Source of the DNA: Rhizobiaceae bacterium
GTDB taxonomy: Bacteria > Pseudomonadota > Alphaproteobacteria > Rhizobiales > Rhizobiaceae
Direction: 5' to 3'
DNA: 64,000 bases
NCBI GenBank assembly: GCA_965248135.1
Contig: CBDFIN010000007.1
Coordinates: forward strand, 126,386 to 190,385
In this document: positions 13,707 through 63,955 of the stretch, in pieces
Numbering within the stretch: position 1 is the first letter of the stretch
Layout: the number at the start of each line of letters is the position of its first letter
Translations under genes and position numbers: made by a program
The notes under the pieces: generated by a model
What the model was told of the DNA's origin: nothing
Seen by the model: only the letters and a program-made list of their open reading frames with translations
Database searches by the model: none

Positions 13707-14300
13707 ATGTCAGAATTTAGGATTATCACAATTTGCAATCAGAAGGGCGGAGCAGGGAAGACAACATTGATAATTCTGTTGGCACTGGCGTTGGAAATTG
13801 TGGGTAAGAAAATTGCCATTTTGGACAAAGACCCGCAACAGACAGCAAGTCGTGCCATCAACAATCTTCGTAAAATTGGCCGTACAGATATAGCAATCGT
13901 CGGTAACATCGCCGATGAATTTGACTATATTTTTATTGATACACCACCCGCTCTCAACGATACGGTAGGGGAGGCAATCAGTATCAGCGATCGCGTCATG
14001 CTCGTGTCATCGCCTTCACCTGCTGATTTGTGGAGTTCGCAGGAAAGCGTCGAATTCATCAAAGATCACCGGCGCAAAGGCGTGCCGACGCGGGTTTTGT
14101 TCAACAGCGTGGTGCAGGTCGCAAGAACCTCACGTGATTTGCCTTCCTTGGCAAAGAGCATCGGTTTTCTGCCGCTTCACAATGTCTTAGGCAGAAGGCA
14201 GGCCTATCAATATGCCATCCTGCAAGGATGGTCCGCCCTTAAACCAATTGAACGAAACGAAATTTTGAAACTCGCTATCGAAATTACCACACTGAGTTAA
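13707..14300 (+). CDS. parA: ParA-family partition ATPase (small, type Ib-like)
   Basis: Deviant Walker A ICNQKGGAGKTT, ILDKDPQ, and Walker B-like YIFIDTPP. Length is 197 aa. Confidence 0.88.
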   Translation: MSEFRIITICNQKGGAGKTTLIILLALALEIVGKKIAILDKDPQQTASRAINNLRKIGRTDIAIVGNIADEFDYIFIDTPPALNDTVGEAISISDRVMLVSSPSPADLWSSQESVEFIKDHRRKGVPTRVLFNSVVQVARTSRDLPSLAKSIGFLPLHNVLGRRQAYQYAILQGWSALKPIERNEILKLAIEITTLS

Positions 14301-29204: not shown

Positions 29205-30926
29205 ATGAATTTAGATCATATCGAACTAACCAACCTTAGACTCTCACCTCTGAATGTACGCAAAAACGGAATCAAACATTCTGACAATCTGGTGGTAAGC
29301 ATCGCCAATATGGGCTTGCTGCAACCGCTTTTGGTACGCGCCAATGATTCAGGAAGTAGCGGAGAGGATTTTGAAATCATTGCCGGACAAAGGCGTTTTA
29401 ATGCCTGTCAAACCTTAGAGGCAGAAGGTAACGGCATCGGTGCTGTACCCTGTATCATAATGCAGGATGGTGATGACGCAGCAGCTATTGAAGCCTCGCT
29501 TGCAGAGAATATTGCAAGATTGCCAATGGATGAAATTGACCAGTATCAGGCATTTTCAGCACTCCTAGAACAAGGCCGCAGCATTGATGATATTGCATCT
29601 CATTTTGGGGTAACGCAGAGACTGGTGCAACAACGTCTGGCAATCTCCAATTTGTTCAATCCAATTCTCAAAGCTTATCGCAACGAAGATATTAAACCGT
29701 CAACATTGCGTATTTTGACTATGGCAACTACGCGCCAGCAAAAGGCTTGGTGGAAATTACACAAGGATGAGCAATCTTATGCGCCGCTTGGAAATTCACT
29801 TAAAAGCTGGTTGTTTGGAGGTCAGCATATTCCAACAGAAAATGCCCTGTTTAATCTCGATGATTACACCGGAGGCATCGTGTCTGATCTTTTCGGAGAG
29901 GAAAAATATTTCACTGACAGCGAAAAGTTCTGGACGTTGCAAGGCAAGTCGATTGCTCTGGCAAAGGAAAAATACATGGCCGAAGGCTGGACTGAAATTG
30001 TCTTGGAGGAAACAGGCGAACATTGGTGCAGTTGGGAATATGTTGAAACCGCAAAGGAAGACGGAGGCCGCATTTATGTCTCTTGTAGCTCTGATGGTGA
30101 GGTTTGTTTTCATGAAGGGTTCTTAACCCGTAAAGAGGCCGAGCGCCTAGAGCGACAAAATAGCGGTAATAAGAAATCAGTTGTGCGACCTGAAATAACC
30201 AAAGCCATGCAGAATTACCTTGATTTGCATCGCCATTGTGCAGTCAAAATAGAATTGTTGAAGCATCCAGACATCGCGCTACGCCTTAGCGTGGCGCATA
30301 TGATTTGCGGTTCTGGTCTATGGAAAGTGGAAGCAGAGCCACAACGGGGCAATACCGAGGCCATCCGTGAAAGCATATCAATTAGCCCATGTGATCATCG
30401 GTTCCACGATGAAACCAGAGATATCCGTGATATATTAAGTTTAGAAGCGGATCAGGATATTATTGATCATAGTTGGCATGGTCATGATCTTGCTGAAACC
30501 TTTGCTCGCCTGACGCGGCTGGACAACGATGAGGTAATGCGTATTCTAACCTTTGTCATGGCAGAAAGTCTGCAATCAGCAACCAGCATGGTTGAAGGTT
30601 TAGGGCAATTACTCAATGTCAACATGGCCGATCATTGGCAAGTAAGTTCTGCCAGTGGTGATGTGTTTTTTGATCTATTGCGAGACAAGCAGGCCATTAA
30701 TGCAATAGTCGCCGAGCTTGCGGGAAAATCAGCAGCAGATGCGAATCTGAAGGCTACAGCCAAGGTGCAAAAGGGCATTATAAAAGACTGCCTGAATGGT
30801 ACCCGCAAAGCCGAAGTTGAAAACTGGCAACCGCGCTATATGCAATTCCCGATGAAAGCCTACACCAACAAAGGCGGCATTGCTGCCATGGATGGATGGC
30901 AGGAAGTCAAAGGGTATTCCCATTAG
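29205..30926 (+). CDS. ParB/Spo0J-like N-terminal-domain protein (573 aa)
   Basis: LSPLNVRKN, LLQPLLVR and EIIAGQRRFNAC are ParB-type N-terminal boxes. A long C-terminal extension is common in ICE/plasmid ParB-like proteins. Confidence 0.78.
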   Translation: MNLDHIELTNLRLSPLNVRKNGIKHSDNLVVSIANMGLLQPLLVRANDSGSSGEDFEIIAGQRRFNACQTLEAEGNGIGAVPCIIMQDGDDAAAIEASLAENIARLPMDEIDQYQAFSALLEQGRSIDDIASHFGVTQRLVQQRLAISNLFNPILKAYRNEDIKPSTLRILTMATTRQQKAWWKLHKDEQSYAPLGNSLKSWLFGGQHIPTENALFNLDDYTGGIVSDLFGEEKYFTDSEKFWTLQGKSIALAKEKYMAEGWTEIVLEETGEHWCSWEYVETAKEDGGRIYVSCSSDGEVCFHEGFLTRKEAERLERQNSGNKKSVVRPEITKAMQNYLDLHRHCAVKIELLKHPDIALRLSVAHMICGSGLWKVEAEPQRGNTEAIRESISISPCDHRFHDETRDIRDILSLEADQDIIDHSWHGHDLAETFARLTRLDNDEVMRILTFVMAESLQSATSMVEGLGQLLNVNMADHWQVSSASGDVFFDLLRDKQAINAIVAELAGKSAADANLKATAKVQKGIIKDCLNGTRKAEVENWQPRYMQFPMKAYTNKGGIAAMDGWQEVKGYSH

Positions 30927-46423: not shown

Positions 46424-47639
46424 CCCCGGTTCAACTCCGAAACGCAACATTTGTTTGCTGATGGAATATGATTTTTGTTTGCGGATTTGGTGGGCGGGGT
46501 CAAGGGCATTGTCGCGTAGCGATGCGCAGCACCCTTGAGGCCGACCGGAAAATCCGCAAAACTCGTCAAACCATTCCATTATGCCTTTGATTATTTAGCC
46601 AGATGGCTGCAATCCTTGTATGGGACACCACATCTCACGGAGGATATTATGCCCAAAGGACATCACCATCTGGCCTATGATCAAAGATGCCAGATTTACA
46701 CACTTTTGCAAACCGGTCTCTGCCGCGCCCAAATTGCCCGCCAGATTGGCGTTGAGCGTTCGACTATCACCCGAGAGTTGCAGCGCAACAAGGGCAAATG
46801 TGGTTATCGCTTTAAACAAGCGCATGACAAGGCGTGTGAGCGGCGCAAAAAGGCCTCTTGTGTGCCGCGTAAAATGACCGTTGAGCGCGTCGAACTCATT
46901 GAAAGCCTGCTGACGAAATGGCAGTGGAGCCCCGATCAGATCAGCGGCTGGCTGGCTCGAAACGGGCTCTTCGTCTCACACGAGTGGATTTACCGCCACA
47001 TCTGGGCGGACAAAAAAAAGGGTGGCAAATTATGGACTTGCCTGCGCCATCGCGGCAAAAAATACAATCGACGCGGCACGAAAACAGCCGGTCGCGGCCT
47101 CATTCCAGGGCGGGTTGACATTGAGGAACGTCCCGAAATCGTCGAAACCAAAAGCCGTGTTGGCGACTGGGAGGGCGATACTATCATCGGCAAAAACCAC
47201 AAGGGTGCCATTCTTTCTCATGTCGATCGAAAATCAAAATACACCAAGCTGGTTCTGTTGCGCGACAAATCAAAGGACAGCGTGCAAAAGGCCTGCGGCA
47301 AGACGCTTTCAAAGCTCAAAGCGTTCATCAAAACCATCACGTATGACAATGGCAAAGAATTCGCCGGGCACAAAAAGATCGCCAAAATATTGCAATGCGA
47401 CATCTATTTCGCCAAGCCCTATCACTCATGGCAGCGCGGCCTCAACGAACATACCAACGGTCTTGTTCGCCAATACTTCCCAAAGGGTACCGATTTCACT
47501 AAGCTGACAAAAGCCGAAGTTCAGATCGTCGAAGACAAGCTGAACCAACGTCCAAGAAAATGTCTCGAATACAAAACCCCATATGAGGCCTTTTCAAAGG
47601 AATGTGAGCAAAATGTTGCATTTCAATGTTGAAGGGGCG
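46424..47639 (+). mobile_element. IS30-family insertion sequence, copy B (1216 bp)
   Basis: It is the same length and has the same ends as copy A. I saw one difference (C at 14573 versus T at 46617). It is flanked by a 3-bp direct repeat ATT (46421-46423 and 47640-47642). Confidence 0.9.
46649..47632 (+). CDS. IS30-family DDE transposase (copy B)
   Basis: The protein is identical to the copy A transposase from MPKGHHHL onward, according to the ORF track. Confidence 0.9.
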   Translation: MPKGHHHLAYDQRCQIYTLLQTGLCRAQIARQIGVERSTITRELQRNKGKCGYRFKQAHDKACERRKKASCVPRKMTVERVELIESLLTKWQWSPDQISGWLARNGLFVSHEWIYRHIWADKKKGGKLWTCLRHRGKKYNRRGTKTAGRGLIPGRVDIEERPEIVETKSRVGDWEGDTIIGKNHKGAILSHVDRKSKYTKLVLLRDKSKDSVQKACGKTLSKLKAFIKTITYDNGKEFAGHKKIAKILQCDIYFAKPYHSWQRGLNEHTNGLVRQYFPKGTDFTKLTKAEVQIVEDKLNQRPRKCLEYKTPYEAFSKECEQNVAFQC

Positions 47640-49829: not shown

Positions 49830-51026
49830 GTGACAATTTCCCAAGAGCAATTGTCTATTCTTCGCGACCGAATGGAAGAAAAATTGGGATGCGCCACATT
49901 TCGATCCTATCTTTCGGATGCTAATTTTGTAGCGGATGTCGCCTGCACCAATGTACAATTGATAGTTTCATCAAAATTCAGGGCCGATCGACTTAACGAA
50001 CACCACAAGTTCGATATCCAGAATGTCATTTCACAGGTGTTCGGGAAATCGATCAGTCTGGAGATTGAGGCAAATTCACACTGCGGGCAGCCAGAAACCC
50101 AACAGCTATTCGAGGCCGATGAGCAATATAATATGTTTGTCCCAACCATCTCGGAAGTATCGATAAAAGATGACGTGCATCTTATGGGAATTGCACCATT
50201 CACTCTCCAACCGCGCGGCGACACCCGTACCAGGCTTTGTTACAGAAATATTGACGGCATGGACATCGATATTAAAGCGCACCCGGATTATGGGCTTCCC
50301 ACCCCGATGGACTTTAACATCGTTCTAATGATGGAGAGCCATTTGGCGGCGAGTGCCAATCACTACCGAAGAGCGCTGAACTACTATCAAACCATGAAAA
50401 AAACTGGTCGAACTATCGAGAAACCTAACCCGCCACCAAGGGTGTTTCGCCCCACAGTTAAAGAGATCATGGAATTCACACGCGATCACGACACCAAACT
50501 TGGTAAACGATATGGAGGTAAACAGGCATCTGTCCTTGAGCTAAGGCTGGATAGACTTAAGAACACCAATGCTAAAATTCGCCAAACCGGAAATCGCCGA
50601 AAACGCGTTGGAACATTTAGTTATATTGGCGATTGGCGCGTGGTTTCGGAAACAGAAACAGGCAATATAGAGCAGGTAGAAATTGAGTATCCTGACTGGA
50701 TTTATGCCGGGATTGTTGAGGCTGTCAGGCCTACTATTCTTACATATGACGATGATTATGAACTGCTAAAACAGCCAATTATGATGTTTCTTTACCGGGT
50801 CTTGCGTTCCAAAGTGACCGATAATCATAAAGAATTTTATTTGGAGGATCTGCATCGTCGTAGCGGATCACGTCAACCCCTGAAAGAATTTAACCGAACA
50901 CTTATAGAACGCGTTGATGAGACGGAGAAACAAGGATTCTTTGATTGGAGTTTATCAATCCAAGGCAATGCGAGGCAACGCAAATTGGTGGTCACAACAA
51001 GGGTACCAGCCTCTGAAGAGCCATAA
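49830..51026 (+). CDS. Replication initiator protein A-like (RepA/RPA family)
   Basis: DYGLPTPMDFNIVLMMESHLA resembles the conserved G(L/I)xTxxDxDILIxLxS box of the RPA family as I remember it. The gene is immediately followed by an iteron array. The start is GTG. Confidence 0.55.
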   Translation: MTISQEQLSILRDRMEEKLGCATFRSYLSDANFVADVACTNVQLIVSSKFRADRLNEHHKFDIQNVISQVFGKSISLEIEANSHCGQPETQQLFEADEQYNMFVPTISEVSIKDDVHLMGIAPFTLQPRGDTRTRLCYRNIDGMDIDIKAHPDYGLPTPMDFNIVLMMESHLAASANHYRRALNYYQTMKKTGRTIEKPNPPPRVFRPTVKEIMEFTRDHDTKLGKRYGGKQASVLELRLDRLKNTNAKIRQTGNRRKRVGTFSYIGDWRVVSETETGNIEQVEIEYPDWIYAGIVEAVRPTILTYDDDYELLKQPIMMFLYRVLRSKVTDNHKEFYLEDLHRRSGSRQPLKEFNRTLIERVDETEKQGFFDWSLSIQGNARQRKLVVTTRVPASEEP

Positions 51027-51869: not shown

Positions 51870-52420
51870 CTAACATGCTGCAATTATTGATGTATGTCGT
51901 GTTTTACGCACTTTATTACTGTCGATGGCGGTATATTGGAACCGGCGGATATTCTGACCTCTTTTGCCTTTGAATGTCAGAAACTTAACATCCATTTGAA
52001 TCTGGTGACCAGGAACTTGTTTGTTGTAGCGCTTGGTGTGTATTTTCCGCATTCGGGTGCCGCGAGAGAGACGGTTCAGACCATTGCGCCTGAGGATTCG
52101 ATAGACTGTGGCATCTGATAAATTGAGGCCATGATATCTCGCCATATACCACACGATCCTCATTGGGCCGAGATGGTATTTGCGGCGAAGAGGTTGAACC
52201 CTTCCTCAATTACAGGGTCCGTTCTATTTGCGTGCCGCTTTGTAATTGGTTTGGCATTAATCAACCCGGCTTCACCATGCTTTTGATAAGCTTCTCGCCA
52301 TCTGTAGAAGCTGGATCTGCCGACCCCAAAATACCGACAGGTTTTGGCGACATGACCAATCTTTTCAGCATATAGAAGAATGCTTAGTTTGCGATGAATT
52401 TCGCGTTGATCCTTGTTCAT
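51870..52420 (-). pseudogene. IS481-like (rve DDE) transposase remnant, frameshifted and 3'-truncated
   Basis: The HTH part is CRYFGVGRSSFYRWREAYQKHGEAGL (52160-52420). The next frame has IVWYMARYHGLNLSDATVYRILRRNGLNRL...VPGHQIQMDVKFL...FQYTAID. Similarity is then lost, and the remaining DDE residues are missing. Confidence 0.65.
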
Positions 52421-52641: not shown

Positions 52642-54582
52642 TTGGGTTTTAAAGGGTTCATTGTGAATACAGCAATACGCGGCGATTTACCGGGATGGCT
52701 CCTGGATCGAATTGATTCCACATCTGACGAAGAGGTGCGCGAAGAAATTGAGATTAAATTCATTCTTCCGAAAAATAACTGCCTCACCGCAGTGAAAAAA
52801 AACAACCCCAGAATACAGAATATTGAACAGATCTATATTGATATAAATGTATTAAAAGAGACCGCAGTAAATATATTGCCGGACAACTGCGATACTTATA
52901 CCGAATGGCGTGTCAGGCGAAATAATGACGAGTATTTTGTGACCGGAAAATCTGAAACCGCTACAAGTATCACTCGCAATGAATTTCAAAGGCCAATCAG
53001 CACAGAAATGTATAATTCCATAATAAAAACAACAGGTAAGAACAAGAATACAAAATCGGTCAAGAAAATCAGGCAATCTTTCGAATTGACCGTTGGAAAA
53101 GAAACGATTTTGGTTGAGGTCGATAATTTCAAAGAGGTGGCAGGGAATCCCGTGAATCTGGATTTCGTTTATTGCGAGTTGGAACTGAAAAGCAAACCAC
53201 TGGCAAGATCAATTCAAAGTGGGCTGGTCAGCATTGGGGCATTGGAAACATTTGTTGTCGGCTTGGAGGTCACCAGATTTAGAGAATTTAAAAATGCTTG
53301 GCTTGCTGAATACGGATTTCCGGCAGAGACATTTCATAAAGTAAATGCATGGGTGCAAAACGCTTGTACTCGCGAATTTCAACAAATGATATGTAAAGCA
53401 GACCCCAAGGAAATAGGGCATGTTATGTTGACACTAGAGCAACGTAATCAAATTGGGAAATCAGAACTCAAATCCAGCGCAAGTGCTAAACCGCCGCTCG
53501 CGGAATTGCGTTTTGACGTGGGAGATACTTATGGCCGGTCGGCACGAGTTCCCGAGAAATTCAATATTGCCGACAATCACGGCTATGGCTGGTTGCGTGA
53601 CTTTCAAAAAATTGTTTCTTCAGATCCATTTCTCAGACTATTTTCCAAACCGCAAATATTTAGACCAGGGCTGGGAAACAATACCACCACGACCAGAGGA
53701 CAGCACACGCTGGATGTAATATCAAGCGCACAAAATATTGCCAATCAAACCGGGTTAAACGATCACCTCGCTGCGGCAATAGCCGCATTGCACGATTTGG
53801 GGCATCCCGCCGGAGGGCACAAGGGCGAAGAATTCCTGTCAAAATTGAGCAGGCAGTCTGGCGATGGAACATCCATCTTGTTTAAACACCACATTTATTC
53901 TCTTTCACTGGCAGAAATATTTGATTTTAACCTGCAGAGAGAAGTGCAAATTGGCGCGTTTTATCACAAGTCCGGTGGCAAAAAACTCACTGCTCCCGCC
54001 AATTGTCCCCAAGAGTTTGGTGTTGTCAGAATTGCCGACAAAATTTCCTATGTACCTTGGGATATTCACGATTCGATCAAGAATAATTTCTTGAAAAAGG
54101 GTGATGTTCCCCAATGGATTTATGATGAATTGGGCTCTGAGCCACCCGATTGGATTATTACAATGATCGACGCAATTGTTGATGAAAGTCAGCAGGAGTT
54201 TAGTGTAACATTCTCTGAAAAATCGGGAAAGGTTTTTAAAGCCTACGAGGCTGCAAGGAAAATTGTGTATGATAATGTGCACAGTAAAATATTTTGGCAA
54301 ACTCTTGAGGTTCAATACGAGTTATCTTTTCAGATACTTAAAAATTCATTCCCCGATATCGATCCGATTCCGATTCTGGCTTATATGACTGACTCTGAAA
54401 TTGAACAGATCGCAAAACATGCAGAAGCCAATCCAATTGGCACAAGTATTGACTTGGAATACTTAAAGGATACAGGAATGGGAGTGGTTGAGATATTGGA
54501 GCATTTAGCGAAAATCAAGGAAGCGGGGGAGTGGGACCAGAAGGTATTTTTCCATCATATGGAACGCCACCGCCTAAAGTAA
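52642..54582 (+). CDS. CYTH-like domain fused to a dGTPase-like (Dgt/SAMHD1-type) HD phosphohydrolase domain
   Basis: The N-terminal CYTH signature ExExK is in EEIEIKFILP, with WRVRR and a late strand LDFVYCELELKS. The C-terminal HD domain has RGQHTLDV...IAALHDLGHPAGGHKGEEFL and VVRIADKISYVPWDIHDSIK (compare the dGTPase boxes HDIGHxPFGHxGE and ADDIxYxxHDxxD). The start is either TTG 52642 or GTG 52663. Confidence 0.72.
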   Translation: MGFKGFIVNTAIRGDLPGWLLDRIDSTSDEEVREEIEIKFILPKNNCLTAVKKNNPRIQNIEQIYIDINVLKETAVNILPDNCDTYTEWRVRRNNDEYFVTGKSETATSITRNEFQRPISTEMYNSIIKTTGKNKNTKSVKKIRQSFELTVGKETILVEVDNFKEVAGNPVNLDFVYCELELKSKPLARSIQSGLVSIGALETFVVGLEVTRFREFKNAWLAEYGFPAETFHKVNAWVQNACTREFQQMICKADPKEIGHVMLTLEQRNQIGKSELKSSASAKPPLAELRFDVGDTYGRSARVPEKFNIADNHGYGWLRDFQKIVSSDPFLRLFSKPQIFRPGLGNNTTTTRGQHTLDVISSAQNIANQTGLNDHLAAAIAALHDLGHPAGGHKGEEFLSKLSRQSGDGTSILFKHHIYSLSLAEIFDFNLQREVQIGAFYHKSGGKKLTAPANCPQEFGVVRIADKISYVPWDIHDSIKNNFLKKGDVPQWIYDELGSEPPDWIITMIDAIVDESQQEFSVTFSEKSGKVFKAYEAARKIVYDNVHSKIFWQTLEVQYELSFQILKNSFPDIDPIPILAYMTDSEIEQIAKHAEANPIGTSIDLEYLKDTGMGVVEILEHLAKIKEAGEWDQKVFFHHMERHRLK

Positions 54583-54685: not shown

Positions 54686-57600
54686 ATGCAAAGACCCTTT
54701 GTTGTAAATCTGGTTTCACACAAAGGCGGTGGCGGGAGAACGACCGTCGCGGTCTCACTTGCGGAAATTTTGGCTGTCCAAGGCAAAAACGTCCTCCTGA
54801 TAGACATGGATTTTGAAGCTCCGGGCATTCCATTGTTTACCAATCGGTGGAACACGGAAAAACTTAAATCCATCATGGATTTTCAGCCAGAAAACCTTGT
54901 CTGTATTGCCGATATTTCGCCTGCTAAACCCGGGCAAAAACCGATATCCGAAAAAAACAATGTTGGATCGACTCGTTGCCGGATTCCAGGCAGTGTGGAC
55001 TGCCTGCAGATGACTTTAGAACATATCAGGGAGGGGTTGCCGGATATTTCAGATGCCAACATCAAATGGAATCAAAGCGTCGTTTCTGATATCTTACAAA
55101 CATTCCGAGAAAACGACAGTATTGGGAAAATTGAAGTCCAGGTACAGAAACAAATGAGGGATTACATCTATGAGTATATTCCCAACTCAAAAAAAGAAAT
55201 TTCTGGAAGTCAACCAACGAAACTGCCTGCCCGAATATTTTTACTCCCGTCGGGTGGATGTTATTTTAGAAAATCGAAAGAAACCATCCGTTGGGAATAT
55301 TCTGGAACCAATTATTACATCCTAGATAGCATGAGTTCTGACGAGACGGCGCGCAGTAAGATCGCGCAGCCATGGTTGCCGCGAGAATTTGTTTTCAATG
55401 GCGTAAATTTGACGGCGACGCTGGTCAACGCCGCAGTTTACCAACTTGACAAGATAAATGCGTCTGTTGATTACGTAATTATTGACCTTCGCCCGGGAGA
55501 TGATGTGGTCACAGGTGCAAATTTCAGTGCTTCTGATGGTGTAACCTATACCAGCGCGGCGTCCCGGGGGGCCATGAACGGGATAATAGAAGATATTAAA
55601 ATTCATAAAGATGCTTATTTACCACAAAAAGAGGGGGAAAGAAATGATCGAGTACCAAAAATATTCGGCTGCTTTATTGATAAACTCTCTTTTGAGGCCC
55701 GGAAAGATTCCAGAAATTATGCGCAAGAAAATGTTGACGATCTTGGCTACCCCGATGTTTTTGATATTGTTAGTGAAAAAGATGATTGCCTGAAAAATAT
55801 CGGAAAAATTGATTCTATTGGTAGAACCATGCAGGTTGCGTGCCATCATGCATATGGAACGCTAAACCAGATCCCGCTATTTCCATGGAACAATGCCGAT
55901 ACAAAAGACAAGGCTTTCGATGTCGTTGGTTCGGTCGATACTATTTGGTCCACTCTCGGGCTAAAAAAATTCCGGCCTGCAAGTTTACTACCGCTGCCTT
56001 TGGATAACTATACGTTGACCGTCCAGGAACGCACCTTTGAATTGACGGACTGGTCGAAGCGTGTTGCGTTCTGGAGTGACAATTCCGTTCTTCAAAATGA
56101 TCCGATTGGAGCGGGTGCCAATTGCATAGCGCTCGTATCAGCCGAATATCGCGATAGTTTCTCAGATCCACAGACCGTACCAATTAGATATTTCCAGGGG
56201 GATTTTAAGGGCGACTGGATCTGGCGAATGGCGAATGCGCTGGGCCTCAAATGTACAGATGGAAATGAATCCGGCGACACCGCGAAAAAAATAATGAGTG
56301 TGTTGGACAAGGCGCCTCAATCTATAAAAGAACTCGATGGGGAGTTGAGCTCCGGTGCAGTTCTTGATTCGTATTATTTCGTACTTGGAAAATTGGTTAA
56401 TTTAATTGCGCAGGATTCAAATGAAAAATCTGAATATGAAACAATATTGCAACTATGTGATGCTGCAATTAGCGCTTTTGAATGCCGCGAAAGCCATTTG
56501 AAATATGACGGCCTGAAAATAAATCTCAAGATACTTCAGGCGAATACCTATTTCAAATTGGCGACCATTGAATTTGACTTGTACGAACTGAACAATGCTC
56601 GCGATCACTTTAAGAGAGGGTTGAAGCTCTTTACCGAAGTCAGGGAGATTTCAAATACCAGCGGGGATTCGCTTCTGAAGCTGGACGCAGACAAGTATGA
56701 GAACCTGCGGAAAGATGCGGACACTGAAAACGTGTTGTTTTTTCTTAATTACTTTATCACTGAGAATGAAGCCAAGGCTACGGAATTGATGGGCAAGACC
56801 GATAATTCTCTCGTAATCTCATTGGTCGATTGGTTTGAGCCACTTCTGAAACTATGGAGTAAACCGGATTCAGTACCCAAAAGGTTGGAAATATGGATCG
56901 AAGATTATAATCTTTCTGATATTGCATTTTTTCTAGCCGCGACCGGTTCTACGCCCTTGAAGAACCTTTCAGACAAACTGTTCAAAGCCTTGACTTCGGC
57001 ACTCGACAATAACTGGGCGACCCTTCAATTTTCAATAAGAGCCCATATGTTACCCTGCTATTTACACAATGCCTGGGCCGGTTTGGCATTCAGCAGGGAT
57101 AAGCCAAACGACGTATTATCCCGCCGTTTGGACGATATTTACCGTCAAACCAATGCGTTTGGTGGATTGAAAAATCGGGCCAAACTGCAAAACTGGGCAG
57201 GAATTGCCAATCTGGAATTGGCAAAGGTAATGTTTTTAGACAATTCCATTGATGCGGCAACTGAGTTTTCGCGGCGGGCGGCATCCCTTCTTTTGCGTTC
57301 AGCTATTAACGACCATGATATTTCCGCCTGGTTTTTACTGGCAATCGCAAGAACAGTGACACGCAGGTGCCTAGAAGAAAGAGTCGGCAATTCAGCGGAC
57401 TCAAAAGACAAAGAAATATTGTTAAAGAGGATATTGATCGTACGACGGGATGCGTTTTATGCCTACGAACAATGGCACGCCCTGGCATCTGCAGATGTAA
57501 CCCGAGACGATAATCAAGATCATTTCAATCCCGAAAAATGCACAATGAAGTTCCTAGATGAAGGGAAGGCAAAATCAAATAAAACTGCATTAGCCTTGTT

Positions 57601-57886
57601 TGGTGAAGATGTAGAGGTTCAAGATGATACAAATTTGGGTATGGACAATGACAAGACCGTCATGATCAGGCCTGGATTAATCTCAACCATTGGTGGCCTA
57701 GATCGGTATTATCAAGGAAGCGAGGCAGGCGAACTTGATGAGAAATTGAGTGAGTATCTAATACAAGTTCTTGATGGCAGTGGTAATGAGCACTGGAATA
57801 GAAATACAGCTCTTGGATATGCCAAAGAAGTGAAAGGGCATTTGAAAGTTTATCTAAAACTGGGGCTGGAAAAAGACGGGGAATGA
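54686..57886 (+). CDS. Large ParA/MinD-clade ATPase with a variant Walker A (KGGGGRT) and a long helical-repeat C-terminal region (1066 aa)
   Basis: VVNLVSHKGGGGRTTVAVSLAEILAVQGKNVLLIDMDFEAPGI. A Walker B-like strand VDYVIIDLRPGDD lies at about residues 261-273. The C-terminal region of about 550 aa is helical and TPR-like by eye. The RBS GAGGGA precedes the ATG. Confidence 0.75.
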   Translation: MQRPFVVNLVSHKGGGGRTTVAVSLAEILAVQGKNVLLIDMDFEAPGIPLFTNRWNTEKLKSIMDFQPENLVCIADISPAKPGQKPISEKNNVGSTRCRIPGSVDCLQMTLEHIREGLPDISDANIKWNQSVVSDILQTFRENDSIGKIEVQVQKQMRDYIYEYIPNSKKEISGSQPTKLPARIFLLPSGGCYFRKSKETIRWEYSGTNYYILDSMSSDETARSKIAQPWLPREFVFNGVNLTATLVNAAVYQLDKINASVDYVIIDLRPGDDVVTGANFSASDGVTYTSAASRGAMNGIIEDIKIHKDAYLPQKEGERNDRVPKIFGCFIDKLSFEARKDSRNYAQENVDDLGYPDVFDIVSEKDDCLKNIGKIDSIGRTMQVACHHAYGTLNQIPLFPWNNADTKDKAFDVVGSVDTIWSTLGLKKFRPASLLPLPLDNYTLTVQERTFELTDWSKRVAFWSDNSVLQNDPIGAGANCIALVSAEYRDSFSDPQTVPIRYFQGDFKGDWIWRMANALGLKCTDGNESGDTAKKIMSVLDKAPQSIKELDGELSSGAVLDSYYFVLGKLVNLIAQDSNEKSEYETILQLCDAAISAFECRESHLKYDGLKINLKILQANTYFKLATIEFDLYELNNARDHFKRGLKLFTEVREISNTSGDSLLKLDADKYENLRKDADTENVLFFLNYFITENEAKATELMGKTDNSLVISLVDWFEPLLKLWSKPDSVPKRLEIWIEDYNLSDIAFFLAATGSTPLKNLSDKLFKALTSALDNNWATLQFSIRAHMLPCYLHNAWAGLAFSRDKPNDVLSRRLDDIYRQTNAFGGLKNRAKLQNWAGIANLELAKVMFLDNSIDAATEFSRRAASLLLRSAINDHDISAWFLLAIARTVTRRCLEERVGNSADSKDKEILLKRILIVRRDAFYAYEQWHALASADVTRDDNQDHFNPEKCTMKFLDEGKAKSNKTALALFGEDVEVQDDTNLGMDNDKTVMIRPGLISTIGGLDRYYQGSEAGELDEKLSEYLIQVLDGSGNEHWNRNTALGYAKEVKGHLKVYLKLGLEKDGE

Positions 57887-57950
57887 ATTGGCACCATGAG
57901 CGCATATTCACTGGCCAAGAAAATGGTCCAATGGAGGTTAAGAACTTAAA

Positions 57951-60092
57951 GTGACGCTTTTTATTTCGTTTTACTCTTTTAAGGGTGGTGTCGGTCGCAC
58001 CAGCGCGATGATGAATGTCGCACGCCATCTGGCGGAACGAAAAAAGAAAGTACTGGTGGTCGATGCGGACGTTGCCGCGCCGGGTATTGATGTATTCGAA
58101 ATTCTGGACCGTTCAATGGTTGATTTTCCTAGTTACAGCCCCTACCGGCGGGAAATTTATCATCAGCTAAATGAGCTTGCTCAAGGTACCGATAATGCAA
58201 ATGACCAACATATCTGGAAGACCGGGGTTTTAGAAAAACTGGACGAAAAAAGCGAGAATGAAGAACTTACTAACAGAGAACTTATTCAAAAAATTCTTGG
58301 AATTGCCGATGAAAATTCCAAGCCTGCCAATCATTCTGAAAGTTCCCAGCCGGTAAACTGGATGGAGGTTGATAAATTTGTCGAAGCCAACAGCAAGCCC
58401 GCTAAATTGTTGGCCTTGAAAGAGGAAAATACCGGATTTGTTGAGTATCTTAATACATTGAGCGGAGGTAATGATCCGGATTTAAGTTGTATAAAAAACA
58501 TCGCTGCAAAAACGGTTATGCACGCCGATATCAAGATGATGCGTGCCGGCGCTTATGAGGACAACAAAGAGTATGAAAAAATCCAAAATGAGTTGATAAC
58601 GCGGCTGAATGAATTGGCAGAAGACCGCGATGATGATAGCGGCATCAGCAAAAACCTAATTAAACTGGCCAGGGAATTTCATCAGGAAGTTAATGACAAG
58701 ATTAAAGCTGACTATGTTCTGATCGATTGCCGACCTGGCCGGGACATTATAACCCAGTTTTGCGTCAATTATCTGGCTGAGATCAATGTATTGATGTTTA
58801 ACCTTAATCCCTGGAATTTCAGTGGCATCCAGACCACTTACAGCGAGTTGGTTAAATTTCACAAGGAAATTAAGAAAGATCCGAAAAAATACTCCGGTGC
58901 CCATCCTGAAATTCGGATTTTGCTCGCTGCGTCACCTGTTCCCCGTTATGCCAAAAATTCAGACCTCTATGCGGGCCAGATACAAAATGTGAACAACACA
59001 ATGAGTTATGCCAAGAATATTCAAGGCAAGGGTGGCAGCGTCGTTGAGGTGCCTTTTTCAGATATTTTGTTGCTGCGTGACATAATTATTTTTGATTACG
59101 ATCAGTCAGATCTGGCAAACACAGCTTACAGTGAGTTGGCTGACCTGATTATCGCAGAAAACACCGGTGATGTGCAAAACATCGTTCAGCGCGTACTTTC
59201 CGGTCATCAAAATAAACAGGAACAAATAGAACAACTAAAGGTACTGGCGTCATTAAACTTGAACAGCCCCATCGTCGCTTTGGAACTGGCCAAATTACAA
59301 ATGGATGGCGCGGACTATAATGATAGCATTGATTCACTTTGCATAGCCGGTGAGCGCGAGAATATTAAAATTGGGGAACTTACGGATAGCCGTTCTGCGG
59401 ATGATGAGTCAGAAATTTGGAATTCAGGATTTACCGCCGAAATTCGAATTAATCTTGCCGAGGTATTCCACAAGAAATCAGAGGAAGGCGATAAACCCGA
59501 ACCAGAGGATTCAGAACTGAAGCCCAAAACACTAGAGCTCAAAACCACGTGTGACATAATTTGCCTCCATAAAAAGATTATTAGTGACAGAAAAGGTTCA
59601 GGAGAATTTGCGAAAACTGACGGAGAGTATCCGGATTTCGATACCGTTTTCACATTCGACCCAAGCTGTGGCGATAAATCGGTTGAAGAGTTTTCTGATC
59701 GCGTGGCAAAAAGATGGAGTGACGATGTTTTTCGTAAAAAACTCGATGATACTGCTACCCAGGAGACTGGCGATGAAGTTTTGGAAACCGACAATTTGAA
59801 AAAGGGAGAAACCGAACTTATGCACGCTCTGGCGCTGATGTTTCACCTCAAGGCTTGCAGGCTGCAACAAACAATAGCGCCGTCTGGCAAGAAAATTTAC
59901 GATTCCGATTCAGGAAGCCAGTCGAACGATAATTTTGAACGACTGGGCTGCTATGCCATAGCTGCCGAAAATATGAGCCAAATGGCATTTGATCTGGACA
60001 AGCAAAATGCAAAATTCGCCAAATCACTGGCAAAAATGTCCCGCACCCGGTCCAGTGCCGAAAGCTTGATCACTTTCAGAAAGAAAGATTGA
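57951..60092 (+). CDS. Paralogous ParA/MinD-clade ATPase with a KGGVGR variant Walker A and a helical C-terminal region (713 aa)
   Basis: FISFYSFKGGVGRTSAMMNVARHLAERKKKVLVVDADVAAPGI. A Walker B-like strand ADYVLIDCRPGRD lies at about residues 253-265. The start is GTG, with GGAGG upstream. Confidence 0.75.
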   Translation: MTLFISFYSFKGGVGRTSAMMNVARHLAERKKKVLVVDADVAAPGIDVFEILDRSMVDFPSYSPYRREIYHQLNELAQGTDNANDQHIWKTGVLEKLDEKSENEELTNRELIQKILGIADENSKPANHSESSQPVNWMEVDKFVEANSKPAKLLALKEENTGFVEYLNTLSGGNDPDLSCIKNIAAKTVMHADIKMMRAGAYEDNKEYEKIQNELITRLNELAEDRDDDSGISKNLIKLAREFHQEVNDKIKADYVLIDCRPGRDIITQFCVNYLAEINVLMFNLNPWNFSGIQTTYSELVKFHKEIKKDPKKYSGAHPEIRILLAASPVPRYAKNSDLYAGQIQNVNNTMSYAKNIQGKGGSVVEVPFSDILLLRDIIIFDYDQSDLANTAYSELADLIIAENTGDVQNIVQRVLSGHQNKQEQIEQLKVLASLNLNSPIVALELAKLQMDGADYNDSIDSLCIAGERENIKIGELTDSRSADDESEIWNSGFTAEIRINLAEVFHKKSEEGDKPEPEDSELKPKTLELKTTCDIICLHKKIISDRKGSGEFAKTDGEYPDFDTVFTFDPSCGDKSVEEFSDRVAKRWSDDVFRKKLDDTATQETGDEVLETDNLKKGETELMHALALMFHLKACRLQQTIAPSGKKIYDSDSGSQSNDNFERLGCYAIAAENMSQMAFDLDKQNAKFAKSLAKMSRTRSSAESLITFRKKD

Positions 60093-61078
60093 GGGAGATG
60101 GCATTTCCTATTTGCGAACATAAAGAATTTATTGCCAAGAACCAACCGCTTCATGATCGATTGAAGGATGCGCTGGAGCAAAATCCACTGGACTATGACC
60201 TGCTCAAGGATCGCGCCTATTCGTTTGTTGCCCGGGGTCTGGCATTTTTATGGCGCGCCGGTAATAGTAGTGACCAATCGGATAACAAATGGTTTCTGGC
60301 TCACTATCCGCTCCGGAATGAAATACCATTCATTGTTTGTTCGCAAAACGAAGCAAGACAAATCAATGCCGAAGGCGAGGTTGAAGCAAGCACTGCTCTC
60401 GGTGAACTGGAAAAAGCCATCGATGTATTTGAAAGAATGCATGAAAGAGATTCCTCACTTTCCGATGGAAAGATGGGACAGGGCCTGTGTACTTTGATTA
60501 TTGCCATCAAACTGAAAGCCGGTGGCGGATCAAGTCGTGATTACATAACAAAGCTTGAAGAGGCAGCCGCTGCCTTTGACGATGCGCGACTGGCGGGTGA
60601 ACGGGCCGGCCCCGCCTATCTATATGGTGCCCTGACCCATTTCTTGCTTCTAGCAACGCAGGAAATTCAATCCCATTTCAAATTCCGTTCCGCCGAAGAC
60701 TGGGAGAAACTATACGCCTATCATGCTCGAAAGCGTCAGGCTTTTTACAGACTGGAACATTTTATCGATCAGTTTCTTGAAGATATTATTGAAGGTTGTG
60801 ATGATGTCCAAATTGCGGGTGACGGGAAAGTCTGTAATTTGAAAGAAGCAAGAAGTGGTGAAAAGCCTTTGGGTTTTTATTTCGATCCCGTGGATGTAGT
60901 CAAAATACTACCAAACCCCATTTATGCAATCGGCTCCCTCGAAAAGAAGCTCGCATTGATGCCGATTTGCAAGTCTTTTCTAGGAGCGAAAGAATTTGTG
61001 GCTGACGGAGAAAAAATTGACGAAATTATTGCAAAGCAGGCTCGGAATTTGTTGGAGGACCATTGTGTTGCCGATTGA
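60089..61078 (+). CDS. Hypothetical all-helical protein (329 aa), overlapping the stop of the preceding ATPase gene
   Basis: The TTG at 60089 overlaps the TGA stop at 60090-60092. An alternative ATG is at 60098. No motif was recognised. Confidence 0.55.
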   Translation: MREMAFPICEHKEFIAKNQPLHDRLKDALEQNPLDYDLLKDRAYSFVARGLAFLWRAGNSSDQSDNKWFLAHYPLRNEIPFIVCSQNEARQINAEGEVEASTALGELEKAIDVFERMHERDSSLSDGKMGQGLCTLIIAIKLKAGGGSSRDYITKLEEAAAAFDDARLAGERAGPAYLYGALTHFLLLATQEIQSHFKFRSAEDWEKLYAYHARKRQAFYRLEHFIDQFLEDIIEGCDDVQIAGDGKVCNLKEARSGEKPLGFYFDPVDVVKILPNPIYAIGSLEKKLALMPICKSFLGAKEFVADGEKIDEIIAKQARNLLEDHCVAD

Positions 61079-61204: not shown

Positions 61205-63955
61205 ATGCCTGATTTAATGAGAATCAGCATATTTAGCAGCATTTTTACTGGAAATCGGTTGTTTAACCTGTTTGCGTTTCTTTCATTTGCCGCCGCATTT
61301 TCCCTACGCATTGGCAGGGATATTGCCCTGTTTACTTCTCTGTTTGCGTACGGAATTTGGGAGCAAGAGTTAGGTCTGAAAGGGGGGGCTGCCATATTGG
61401 GCATCAGTTTTGTCATCAACGCATTTCTGATGACCTGGTTCGCCGGAAAATTCGAAAGTTGGATTGAGACAACAGCACCCGAAACCATATCGACTTTTCT
61501 GCTTGTTCTCGTTGCTGTTGCAGCACTCCTGTTCGGCGTTTCGCTTGATCTTGTTGCCGGATGGGGCCGGTTACCATGGCTTGCGCTTGCTATTTTTGTT
61601 CTGTCGGAAATTGCCATATTTTTGTTCATGAATATGATCTGGATATTTGCAGGACCAAGATTTACAGAGGTTGCCCAGCGCTCGGTTTTTCCAAAAATAT
61701 CCGGCTGGGGATATATCGGCATACTGCTTCCCGTTCTGCTGGGAGGCATGGAACTCGTGTTGTTAGAAATCGCCAATGCTTCCCATCTATTCTATTTTTC
61801 CGCACTGTTAACATTGCTGGCAATCCTGCTGTTGCCGCTCATCAAATCATACCCTTTGATCTCAGAGAATGATGATGAATTTTCAATAGCGCAATCTCCC
61901 GACAACGATGATGAAAGTTTGAGTCTGGGCGATAATTTGGCTTGGGCCTGGCGTAACAGGTACTTGCGATTGTTCATTCTTACCACGATTATGAATTTCA
62001 GTCTGCTGGCGATATTTGATCAGGCGCTTGCAAGTTCTGCATCTGCCATGAAAATAAATTCAAAGGACCTGTTATTTTACCTCATCGGCGCCACCGGGCT
62101 TTTTGCGACAATTGCAGCTATTGTTCAATTTACAGGATTTAGGAGGTGGTTGGACAGATTTGGCGCAGAGAAATTAAATCTGGGCGCACCTTCATCTATG
62201 ATTATCGGGGCGCTAATTTCGGCGGTCGGTTTGACCGGTTGGTTGACTGGAAATTTGCCGCCAATGGAACGAATTTTGTGGTTCGCTGTGACCGCGAGGG
62301 TTTTTGGCTGGATCGCCGAGTTTTTGTTCAACCAGTCCTTGTTGCCCTATATTTACGGCGCCTTGCCATCTGACGTGGAAAATCGCGGTCGGCTGGTTGT
62401 TGAAGGCCCTATAACGGCAATAACCAATGGGGCAATCGGGGCGCTACTCTTGCTTTATGTCTGGATTTTTGATGGCAAAGCAACAAGCTCGGATGGAAGT
62501 GCCGTCATGATGTTTGATTTTATGGCGCTGCTGGCAATCGTGTTTGCAATCATCATGTTTATTTGGTCAATCTATATGATAGGTGAATATAAACAGGTTC
62601 TGCTTGAAAGGTTGACCTCCGGCGAGGTGATTTCTGGGCTGGACAAGCGATCCATGCAGCTTATCAACAGCTTGCGCCGCACAGCCGAGACAATTGGCAG
62701 ACCAACAGTCCCGAATAAATTTCAATCGAAAATTTTGTCGGATTTGTTGAAAGAGAACCTTGATGACCCGGGTCTATCGGCAACATTTGTCACTGAGCTC
62801 CATAGTCTGTCAACACCAACCGAAAACGAACTGGAAGAAATCTGTATCATTGCCACCCGCTTGGGGGTTTTGGAAAGGCTCGGCGAACCCCTGACCCGAT
62901 GGCTGGAGAATACAACAGAAGAGAATTTTGTCAGTATTGCCCAGATACTGGTTCCCTCGGGGTTTGACGGGGGAATTATTATTCATGAATCTTTGTTGAA
63001 CCGTCAGGCAAGTTCCGGATTAAAGCTGAGTCGTGCAAAATTGCTCGAGTGTTCTGCATTATTGGGCAGCGAGAAATGGGGCAAAGCCGCTATTGATGGT
63101 TTTTGGGAAGAAAAAGATTACCCCGATATTATCAGTTCAATTACCAATCCGGCGCGCTTGTCAGCTCTAAAATTCTCGGAGCCCGCCCTGCAGTTTGACC
63201 TGTTTTTGATTGGTCTTGCCCGTCTTTCATCCGAGCGTAGCGCAATGATTGAAGCATGTTCAAAAATGGCAACCGAAAATATCTGGTTGAGAGAATTTCT
63301 GCTTCGCTTGCTGTTTGTCCCTGCTGAACATGTCCCGTCAATGTTCAAAACCGCCCGACTTATGTCTCCATTAGTGTTGGCAAAAATTCACAGTCAAAAG
63401 ACAGCTGGCAAGATTGATTATGCCTCAAAAAATGCGACTATTGTTGAAAATCGAGAGAAAGCACGACCAACAGAAAAAGGTCGCCCGAACGAAATCCAAA
63501 AATTTATCACCACAATAAGCAAATTGGAGGATGTAGATGATTTTCGGGGCGAAGGTGCATACAGTATATTGATATCTAATGATAAATTGGCAGCCGACCC
63601 GGTTTTATTCGCGAACGCACTCAGCATGTTGTGTGACCAGCAGGCAAAACAGCAAATATCAGCAATTGACTTTAACACTGGATTGGACCGTTGGCGTAGC
63701 GAAGCCGCAAAACCTCAATCGAACATCGGGAAAAAATACCTAACCAGAGCCAGAATATATTTGGAAGGGCTGAAAAACCACGAGGCATTTCGCGACCTTC
63801 CGGACGTTCCGGAGCTTGCCGTGCAACTGTATTCGGGCGGAAGCCAGGCTGACCGGATTCAGGCACGTCTTGAGCAATTGATGTCCCGCATTGAAGCAAC
63901 CGTTCTCACCCAGGATATCAGAGAACTAGCGAACAGAATTTCCACAACTGCGTAA
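61205..63955 (+). CDS. Polytopic membrane protein (about 12 hydrophobic segments, 6+6) fused to a soluble helical C-terminal domain of about 450 aa
   Basis: The hydrophobic segments occupy about residues 15-460, with an acidic central loop SENDDEFSIAQSPDNDDESLSLGDN. The general look is MFS/nucleotide-transporter-like (weak). The C-terminal half is helical-repeat-like. Confidence 0.65.
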   Translation: MPDLMRISIFSSIFTGNRLFNLFAFLSFAAAFSLRIGRDIALFTSLFAYGIWEQELGLKGGAAILGISFVINAFLMTWFAGKFESWIETTAPETISTFLLVLVAVAALLFGVSLDLVAGWGRLPWLALAIFVLSEIAIFLFMNMIWIFAGPRFTEVAQRSVFPKISGWGYIGILLPVLLGGMELVLLEIANASHLFYFSALLTLLAILLLPLIKSYPLISENDDEFSIAQSPDNDDESLSLGDNLAWAWRNRYLRLFILTTIMNFSLLAIFDQALASSASAMKINSKDLLFYLIGATGLFATIAAIVQFTGFRRWLDRFGAEKLNLGAPSSMIIGALISAVGLTGWLTGNLPPMERILWFAVTARVFGWIAEFLFNQSLLPYIYGALPSDVENRGRLVVEGPITAITNGAIGALLLLYVWIFDGKATSSDGSAVMMFDFMALLAIVFAIIMFIWSIYMIGEYKQVLLERLTSGEVISGLDKRSMQLINSLRRTAETIGRPTVPNKFQSKILSDLLKENLDDPGLSATFVTELHSLSTPTENELEEICIIATRLGVLERLGEPLTRWLENTTEENFVSIAQILVPSGFDGGIIIHESLLNRQASSGLKLSRAKLLECSALLGSEKWGKAAIDGFWEEKDYPDIISSITNPARLSALKFSEPALQFDLFLIGLARLSSERSAMIEACSKMATENIWLREFLLRLLFVPAEHVPSMFKTARLMSPLVLAKIHSQKTAGKIDYASKNATIVENREKARPTEKGRPNEIQKFITTISKLEDVDDFRGEGAYSILISNDKLAADPVLFANALSMLCDQQAKQQISAIDFNTGLDRWRSEAAKPQSNIGKKYLTRARIYLEGLKNHEAFRDLPDVPELAVQLYSGGSQADRIQARLEQLMSRIEATVLTQDIRELANRISTTA

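Follow-up and report, generated by a model that had tools for sequence, protein, structure and literature searches.

A tandem pair of arginine-variant ParA/MinD-like ATPases and their gene cassette on a plasmid-like element of a Rhizobiaceae bacterium

What role would two oversized relatives of partition ATPases play, side by side, on an element that already encodes a ParA of ordinary size? We examined this question for a 64,000-nucleotide stretch of a Rhizobiaceae bacterium assembly (GCA_965248135.1, contig CBDFIN010000007.1, positions 126,386 to 190,385 of the forward strand), hereafter the window, to which all coordinates without a locus label refer. The two genes are A (54686-57886, + strand; 1066 aa), a divergent ParA/MinD-like paralogue with a long helical tail, and B (57951-60092, + strand; 713 aa), a KGGVGR-motif ParA/MinD-like ATPase. 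A starts with ATG preceded by GAGGGA and B with GTG; an open reading frame (ORF) artefact was ruled out for both, given their orthologues in nine other loci. The pair lies in a multi-gene cassette whose most probable identity is a so far uncharacterised system of defence or nucleotide signalling, and not plasmid-partition machinery. We place at roughly 50% the probability that pair and cassette form a conflict or defence system in which A and B would act as a switch controlling nucleotide-depleting effectors. An earlier note on this DNA, made from the sequence alone, had singled out the two ATPases; the cassette as a whole and a gene split off from B, C329, go beyond it.

Nucleotide site, fold and paralogy of A and B

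Both proteins begin with a KGGxGR Walker A motif (SHKGGGGRTT in A, nt 54716-54745, aa 11-20; SFKGGVGRTS in B, nt 57975-58004, aa 9-18; both +), which is followed by a DxDxxAPG box (IDMDFEAPGI, aa 39-48 of A; VDADVAAPGI, aa 37-46 of B; both +) and, much farther along, by a Walker B-like strand (YVIIDLRPG, nt 55472-55498, aa 263-271 of A; YVLIDCRPG, nt 58713-58739, aa 255-263 of B; both +). The signature lysine and the Walker B aspartate are 254 aa apart in A and 248 aa apart in B. The same spacing is 222-260 aa in their close relatives, compared with 136-171 aa in ordinary KGGVGR proteins (n = 20), whose Walker B reads hhhDxRTG. The earlier note had read these motifs correctly (cores KGGGGRT in A and KGGVGRT in B), including the arginine in place of the P-loop lysine and a Walker B about 250 residues downstream. 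Its proposal of a large inserted spacer has to be divided: the excess of ~100 aa is specific to this subfamily, but ~40 aa over ParA are common to the whole KGGVGR family. Six-frame translation of the window yielded three KGGx[GA][KR][ST] sites only, those of A, B and a canonical small ParA (KGGAGKT, 13707-14300), so an ordinary ParA is present on the element as the note had said.

Apart from the P-loop lysine, which is arginine in both proteins (R18 in A, R16 in B) and lysine in canonical ParA/MinD, A and B carry the features of the ParA/MinD superfamily, namely the signature lysine, the switch-I aspartate pair and a Walker B hhhhD strand. The arginine is invariant in every aligned relative (95, from alignments of 25, 20, 67 and 8 sequences), and so are the signature lysine, the next Thr/Ser, both switch-I aspartates and the Walker B aspartate. 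Among eight orthologues of A the invariant positions include K13, R18, T19, D40, D42, D267 and G271, and in the orthologue alignments of B they include K11, D38, D40 and D259. A second arginine, two residues past the Walker B aspartate where canonical ParA has proline, is invariant in the fully shown B-family sets and at least 90% conserved in wider sets, and is replaced by lysine in one A orthologue (DLKPG).

These patterns bear on the possibility that A and B have lost catalysis and are ParA/MinD-like scaffolds, serving as a helical platform only, in which nucleotide binding has no role. The lost P-loop lysine speaks for this, as do the MinD/ParA-like domains of conflict systems that have been predicted to be inactive (Kaur et al. 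2020, PMC7159879) and the relaxation, in some A orthologues, of the glycines (HKSGSGRT, YKGGSART) and of the APG box (EASG, SASG). The replacing arginine is, however, invariant and not variable, and because it and the signature lysine, Thr/Ser, switch-I aspartates and Walker B aspartate are invariant in both paralogues and in the wider family, the nucleotide site is, as judged from conservation, constrained and not decayed. Lys-to-Arg P-loop mutants of ParA-type proteins, moreover, generally still bind ATP. Overall, we consider dead scaffolds improbable. A is the fastest-evolving core gene of the cassette: the full-length protein nearest to it is only 26% identical, compared with 33% for B and 36-40% for the HD gene described below, and outside the first 60 residues identity between subtypes falls to 14-30%.

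The Pfam models AAA_31, CbiA and ParA match both A and B, while STAND models (NB-ARC/NACHT-type P-loop) match neither; only ParA-type models do. In NCBIfam the label 'KGGVGR-motif variant AAA ATPase', which the earlier note had named, exists as NF047398, with a cut-off of 90 bits that B passes (106.6) and A does not (65.9). P-loop and Walker B motifs of the NF047398 type occur in both proteins (KGGGGR in A, KGGVGR in B, and DxRPG), at the wider spacing given above, compared with the ~140-150 aa expected for that family. A profile of 25 family members matched Soj of T. thermophilus (1wcv) in two stretches, the P-loop and the region from Walker B to the C-terminus, with DYVLIDsRtG of the family aligned onto DLVLLDAPP of Soj.

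The AlphaFold2 model of B has a mean predicted local distance difference test (pLDDT) score of 66.5; residues 1-50 and 180-470 mostly score 80-95, and confidence is low in the insert (aa 52-177) and in the tail past residue 477. The model suggests an ATPase core formed by residues ~1-50 and 180-405, a helical insert at ~52-177 and helical hairpins from residue 408. In Foldseek searches its best PDB matches were Soj, ParA, MinD, FleN/FlhG and NifH (probability 1.0), at target-normalised template modelling (TM) scores of 0.6-0.75 over ~400 alignment columns (~0.7 to Soj and MinD), and Soj (~250 aa) was covered by residues 1 to ~405 of B. On the strength of this model, B is predicted to have the Soj/MinD fold.

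The profile of A (eight members) matches the PDB entries of ParF, ParA and Soj in residues 4-60 only, and BLAST of A against B recovered a P-loop block (E = 2e-8), a Walker B block (E = 3e-4) and nothing further. Comparison of the two families with hhalign (99.9% probability, E = 1.3e-32) extended over 750 columns, spanning the insert (LEGRLFLLPxGG versus EGDIxMMRAG), Walker B and the tail. Because the alignment includes all three, A and B look like old paralogues over their whole length, at ~10% identity, and through its homology to B the predicted ParA fold of A would extend beyond the P-loop. Tandem paralogy and ParA/MinD-like N-terminal regions, both proposed in the earlier note, are thus borne out, the latter directly for B and by way of B for A.

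The typical member of the B subfamily is one chain of 850-980 aa that ends ...PAYLYSGLxQFLL...RFRQAFYRLEHFID...PFYFDPEDID. The C-terminal end of these fused proteins aligns to the window gene C329 (60089-61078, +), which starts with TTG, overlaps the B stop by 4 nt and carries PAYLYGAL, RQAFYRLEHFIDQ and FYFDP. The C329 ORF had no family match in any library, and PDB profiles gave sub-threshold TPR-like matches only to the B/C329 C-terminal module. The same B/C split occurs in a second locus, L086, with a 377-aa protein (33% identical over 328 aa), and in L001 an ORF with a 4-nt overlap stands at the C position, 49 aa of it before the sequence ends. From these alignments C329 is the C-terminal module of B turned into a separate gene. 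The tail of A ends in a cognate module, RxRDAFYAFEQ...YFE (RRDAFYAYEQ ... YYQG in the window copy), so that AFYxxE(H/Q)...(F/Y)Y(F)(D/E) is common to both tails. The earlier note had assigned TPR-like tails of 450-800 aa to the two proteins. Since its last module is now the gene at 60089-61078, B itself has a tail of only ~300 aa, and no Pfam TPR model matches A or B of the window; what holds of the description is the TPR character, seen in homologues and in the helical hairpins of the B model only.

Genes of the cassette

Nine related loci besides the window were collected through homologues of B (L001-L003), by a metagenome scan (L006-L009) and through a homologue of gene D (L086), and cassette gene order was assigned by BLAST and profile mapping. 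Where all members are present, the order is a radical SAM gene (U546), a CYTH-HD gene, zero to six variable genes, A, B, C if B is split, a TIR gene, D and a gene we call E361. A and B are adjacent and in the same order in all ten loci, the pair never occurs alone, and D follows B, or B and then TIR, in each of the seven loci that reach that far. The neighbourhood census thus places the pair always in a multi-gene cassette with TIR, dNTPase-like and CYTH genes; an occurrence as solitary housekeeping genes, which by the earlier note would have weakened its reading, is not what is seen. The HD gene lies upstream in nine of ten loci. In the exception, L008, a 205-aa ORF with an IS1595 transposase zinc ribbon (L008:6679-7296, +) lies directly upstream of A, and because this IS1595-type remnant occupies the usual CYTH-HD position it suggests that the HD gene was lost there through an insertion-sequence event.

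The window subtype comprises HD646, A, B, C329 and D916, separated by 103, 64, -4 and 126 nt. No terminator-like site was found on the + strand in the intergenic gaps of the cassette, in a promoter and terminator scan whose output was no different from that of shuffled sequence. Homologues of the TIR, radical SAM, cyclic nucleoside monophosphate (cNMP)-CYTH and binding-protein genes occur nowhere in the window; an E361-like gene may nevertheless follow D, because the window ends 45 nt past it.

The first cassette gene of the window, HD646 (52642-54582, +), combines an N-terminal CYTH domain (triphosphate tunnel; Pfam CYTH at residues 35-183, 33.6 bits against a cut-off of 23.2) with an HD domain (residues 352-469) like that of deoxynucleoside triphosphate (dNTP) triphosphohydrolases. 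Its best PDB match was the T. thermophilus dNTPase 2dqb (E = 1.7e-24), and a PADLOC dGTPase model scored 74.9 bits; the NCBIfam dGTPase equivalogs remained far below their cut-offs (NF002327, 130 bits against 393; NF041026 anti-phage dGTPase, 49 against 400). Both active sites, RxExExK and H..HD..H..D (nt 52738-52761 and 53785-53820, +), are invariant in six orthologues. The CYTH domain has the ExExK motif, basic tunnel residues and a C-terminal acidic pair, with R33, E35, E37, K39, R90, R92, K103, R112, E114, K142, R144, E179 and E181 invariant.

TIR_2 domains are encoded between B and D in L002, L003, L006 and L009. They share an invariant SxWVxxE, are of the catalytic-Glu type and match defence-type TIR models (PDC-S66, SAVED-TIR and ThsB). 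The last cassette gene, E361 (L002:16765-17850, L003:16556-17659, L006:16609-17691, L086:12772-13821), joins a cNMP-binding domain, matching that of MlotiK1 (E ~4e-5), to a CYTH domain that matches NeuTTM (2fbl/3typ, E ~1e-21) and is homologous to the CYTH domain of the HD protein (hhalign 96%). Its ExExK glutamates are lost and an invariant glutamine stands instead; E361 is probably a ligand sensor. A separate cNMP-binding gene lies downstream of D in L008. The radical SAM protein U546 (L002:1894-3534, L003:1055-3481, L007:3-941, L009:1-417) resembles the archaeosine enzyme RaSEA (TIGR01210, E = 1e-31, under the cut-off). It is encoded immediately upstream of CYTH-HD in L003, L007 and L009 and farther upstream in L002; L002, L003 and L009 also carry TIR, and L007 ends before the TIR position.

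D916 (61205-63955, +) has, by hydropathy, ~12 transmembrane helices at residues 19-462, MFS-like in character, followed by a helical C-terminal domain of ~450 aa. The window protein had no Pfam, NCBIfam or PDB sequence match, and among its orthologues MFS_1 was found in two of six members and HEAT_2 in one of six. Foldseek matched its AlphaFold2 model to MFS carriers including VGLUT2, AtNTT1, NupG and GLUT at non-significant E values of 0.04-0.1. Target-normalised TM scores, none of them significant, were 0.53 to the multidrug pump NorA, 0.51 to the ATP/ADP translocator AtNTT1 and 0.44 to the nucleoside transporter NupG. Because the model is of low confidence and these E values are not significant, we read D only tentatively as an NTT/MFS-type transporter.

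D is also where a transport role enters the argument. In the manner of ArsA and ArsB, A and B could sit on D and energise or gate the transport of a cargo, either a nucleotide or a small compound containing nitrogen, with CYTH-HD processing that cargo and cNMP regulating the process, so that the function would be physiological (uptake, export or salvage) and not defensive. ArsB, a secondary carrier, is driven by ArsA, in which two SIMIBI ATPase halves lie in tandem; in the cassette no triad other than A-B-D is invariant, and ArsA/Get3 models match A and B weakly. D is MFS-like, with the transporter similarities just given. An ABC importer of one family (binding protein, permease and ATPase) recurs in three loci (L006:1710-4791, inside the operon; L008:16354-19498; L086:16760-19204), where its binding protein is nearest the 'urea-carboxylase-associated' type (TIGR03427, ~255 bits, under the cut-off), and some loci lie in a chromosomal housekeeping context. 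On the other hand, D lacks above-threshold sequence similarity to any characterised transporter family, four loci have a gene for a catalytic-Glu TIR between those of B and D, and there is a radical SAM enzyme as well. The distribution is sporadic, over a GC content of 31-62%, with fast divergence, and the window copy lies on a plasmid among STAND-type genes. We judge a transport machine unlikely, but it is the chief rival of the conflict-system reading.

Distribution, setting and proposed role

The GC content of the loci (31-62%) implies that the cassette has spread over very different hosts, one of which is Candidatus Kentrum by its source's own label. It is nonetheless rare. A word-based search of 5.8 billion proteins found three full-length relatives of B, one of A and three of D, and an exhaustive hidden Markov model (HMM) search of 1.84 billion representatives returned ~20 clusters with a full-length B-type match (E <= 1e-50). 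Scanning the GTDB species representatives with the B alignment gave two matches only, both restricted to the N-terminus. Among the 72,556 plasmids of PLSDB neither the cassette (megablast) nor B (tblastn) had a match and HD646 retrieved ordinary dGTPases only, and IMG/VR, scanned with B and with HD, contained no cassette.

The broad KGGVGR family is far larger: in the same HMM search, 3,223 representatives reached E <= 1e-10 and 7,774 reached E <= 1e-3. Ordinary family representatives carry TPR arrays in 51 of 67 cases and PF20308 'TPR-S' in 20 of 67. In metagenomic loci the KGGVGR-TPR gene (~550-635 aa) lies downstream of, and on the same strand as, a gene of ~185-205 aa; its versions in 40 of 49 loci are homologous, and all four tested resemble the MqsA antitoxin (Zn-ribbon plus HTH_3). 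A small gene (~115-135 aa) precedes the MqsA-like gene and is common to 21 of 39 loci. The resulting three-gene operon of small protein, MqsA-like protein and KGGVGR-TPR ATPase is seen in L019-L082 (for example L025:9076-11698 and L043:8987-11815), and we found no description of it. Since KGGVGR-TPR genes sit behind an MqsA-like gene, the wider family does not consist of solitary housekeeping genes either.

The region around the window cassette is a conjugative, plasmid-like element with a TrwC relaxase, a coupling protein (T4CP), RepA, a ParB_N protein (29205-30926) and the small ParA. This location and the ParA-superfamily P-loop matches are what a partition or cargo-positioning role of A and B for a conjugative element would have in its favour. 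The cassette, however, consists of HD, A, B, C and D only and provides no ParB or centromere partner, while the canonical ParA and the ParB_N protein are encoded elsewhere in the window; on these grounds we rejected partition ATPases as the identity of A and B. The same cassette occurs in chromosomal contexts, A and B are three to five times the size of partition ATPases (typically ~200-400 aa), and the B family is absent from the PLSDB plasmids, all of which makes this role extremely improbable.

Candidate immune genes on the - strand of the window encode an Mrr_cat nuclease fused to nSTAND3 (24016-26325) and a 1015-aa NPHP3-like P-loop protein (8307-11354), the latter with a very long TPR_10/TPR_12 array. 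Searches with the relaxase and RepA gave 34-39% matches only, to assorted plasmids of Bacteroidota, Planctomycetota and Proteobacteria. The replication initiator (49830-51026, +; PF10134 RPA) has an N-terminal DnaA_N-like segment (E = 7.5e-5, just under the Pfam cut-off), and among plasmid proteins its best match is a RepA from Pseudosulfitobacter (39% identity). A 1216-bp insertion sequence is present twice (~14380-15595 and ~46424-47639), in copies that are 99.9% identical and each encode a 365-aa HTH_38 plus rve (IS30-like) transposase. Between RepA and the cassette, at the position of the radical SAM gene in other loci, adjacent short ORFs of 86 and 97 aa (51870-52420, -) resemble, by reading, the HTH and N-terminal integrase parts of an IS481/IS3-type transposase and look like a truncated insertion sequence. 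Downstream of the cassette in L003, the opposite strand carries genes for a 470-aa AAA+ ATPase and a 627-aa ThiF/E1-like protein together with an ORF of 98 aa (L003:18894-22524, -), which may form a conflict module of the ubiquitin-like conjugation type.

How might A and B work in a conflict or defence system? ParA, MinD, NifH and Get3 are ATP sandwich dimers in which the signature lysine acts in trans. By analogy with these and with ArsA, A and B would form an ATP-dependent sandwich heterodimer, in which arginine in place of lysine could slow hydrolysis and so make A/B a slow switch and not a partition motor. The helical tails, including C329, may be sensor or scaffold arms that dock A/B on the cytoplasmic helical domain of D. 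HD enzymes of the dGTPase type release inorganic triphosphate (PPPi), and NeuTTM-type CYTH enzymes hydrolyse PPPi. Because of these two activities HD646 could be a self-contained dNTP-destroying line, its HD domain converting dNTP to nucleoside and PPPi and its CYTH domain then hydrolysing PPPi to Pi. With cyclic-nucleotide input, the A/B switch would license the depletion of nucleotides and NAD+, as in abortive infection.

Several observations favour this conflict-system reading. The presence of TIR, radical SAM and cNMP-sensing proteins matches the pattern of a nucleotide-centred conflict system, the patchy distribution fits mobility, and the PADLOC candidate model PDC-M28B matches B (71.5 bits) and A (39.3 bits). 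Against it, the PDC-M28B matches span the generic ATPase core only, the TIR protein and radical SAM enzyme are absent from the window subtype, the ParA fold of A beyond its P-loop is reached through B alone, and the AlphaFold2 model of D916, built from four sequences, is poor (pLDDT 55.6). Several loci adjoin housekeeping genes (CysRS, FliF, YhdP) and not defence islands. The ABC importer is linked to the cassette in three loci that differ widely in GC content, which is unusual for defence and points to transport or metabolism. Both the recurrence of this importer and the adjoining housekeeping genes weigh against a purely defensive role and keep the ArsAB-like alternative in play.

Stated in full, the proposal is that A/B represents a new class of immune switch: a heterodimeric ParA/MinD-fold sensor with an arginine P-loop, the SIMIBI counterpart of STAND/NLR proteins, which would be anchored on the MFS-like D and unleash CYTH-HD degradation of dNTP to nucleoside plus PPPi and on to Pi. 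In some versions a TIR NADase would be unleashed as well, along with a radical SAM enzyme that modifies nucleotides, and cyclic nucleotides would exert control. This complete version is possible, but we advance it tentatively and with the odds against it.

Comparison with known systems

The ATPase family is already catalogued (NF047398; PADLOC PDC-M28B) and, as far as the searchable literature shows, uncharacterised; we found no published characterisation of the KGGVGR family and no description of an A-B-D cassette with CYTH-HD, cNMP-CYTH, TIR and radical SAM genes. With NF047398 the window pair shares KGGxGR[TS], DxDxxAPG, hhhDxR(T/P)G and an SPVP strand, with helical repeats beyond them. Ordinary members, 550-635 aa long, are encoded singly behind an MqsA-like gene and are mostly fused to TPR arrays, whereas the window subfamily has its two Walker motifs ~100 residues farther apart, RPG in place of RTG, the motifs NLNPW and AFYxxEH...FYFD, and a paralogous A-B pair inside a cassette of five to nine genes. 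The invariant Lys-to-Arg change in the P-loop and the conserved arginine after the Walker B aspartate amount to a natural experiment in P-loop chemistry that runs through thousands of proteins (the 3,223 representatives at E <= 1e-10).

Conflict-system catalogues offer partial parallels. The earlier note's reference to surveys of ParA-like plus TPR proteins in such systems is only loosely right: Kaur et al. 2020 (PMC7159879) described 'MinD/ParA-like' effector domains, predicted to be inactive, in vWA-MoxR systems and not the A-B cassette. In PADLOC PDC-M28, the PDC-M28B model matches A and B, while PDC-M28A had no match among the six window proteins scanned.

ParA, Soj and MinD resemble B in fold (TM ~0.7), in the signature lysine, in the switch-I aspartate pair and in the Walker B aspartate. 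Compared with them, A and B have arginine for the P-loop lysine and an insert of ~150 aa, continue into tails of 300-600 aa and lack a ParB or MinE partner; they are not members of that group in a functional sense. For ArsA/ArsB and Get3 the likeness is one of architecture, two homologous SIMIBI units beside a 12-transmembrane carrier-like protein, and should be taken as an analogy. Matches to ArsA and Get3 are weak and at the level of the P-loop only, A and B lack motifs for binding metalloids or tail anchors, D and ArsB are unrelated in sequence, and the A/B cassette also has TIR, HD and CYTH genes.

Anti-phage dGTPases and SAMHD1-type enzymes share the H..HD..D core of the HD646 HD domain, which is nearest the dNTPases. 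HD646 differs in falling far under the equivalog cut-offs, in its fusion to a CYTH domain that appears active from its conserved residues, and in its place within an A-B-D cassette. This fusion suggests a dNTP triphosphohydrolase coupled to removal of its triphosphate product.

Because the cassette is rare (~10 loci), its immediate biological reach is narrow. It belongs to a known kind, the multi-gene, NTPase-centred, nucleotide-targeting system, and could exceed that kind should the sensor turn out to be a ParA-fold heterodimer. In its way of working the cassette is probably best compared, again by analogy, with STAND NTPase-TPR immune sensors (Avs/NLR-like, and the nSTAND3 and NPHP3-like genes of the window), which also combine an NTPase and helical repeat arms and are associated with TIR and nucleotide-depleting effectors. 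A and B, by contrast, belong to the SIMIBI sandwich-dimer class and not to the AAA+-like oligomers of STAND, bring two NTPases in place of one and have their effectors encoded as separate genes. The ParA/MinD fold is familiar from the positioning of DNA and of division proteins; if the cassette is indeed a defence or nucleotide-signalling system, that fold would have been recruited as a central NTP-dependent switch, a second independent solution beside STAND/NLR.

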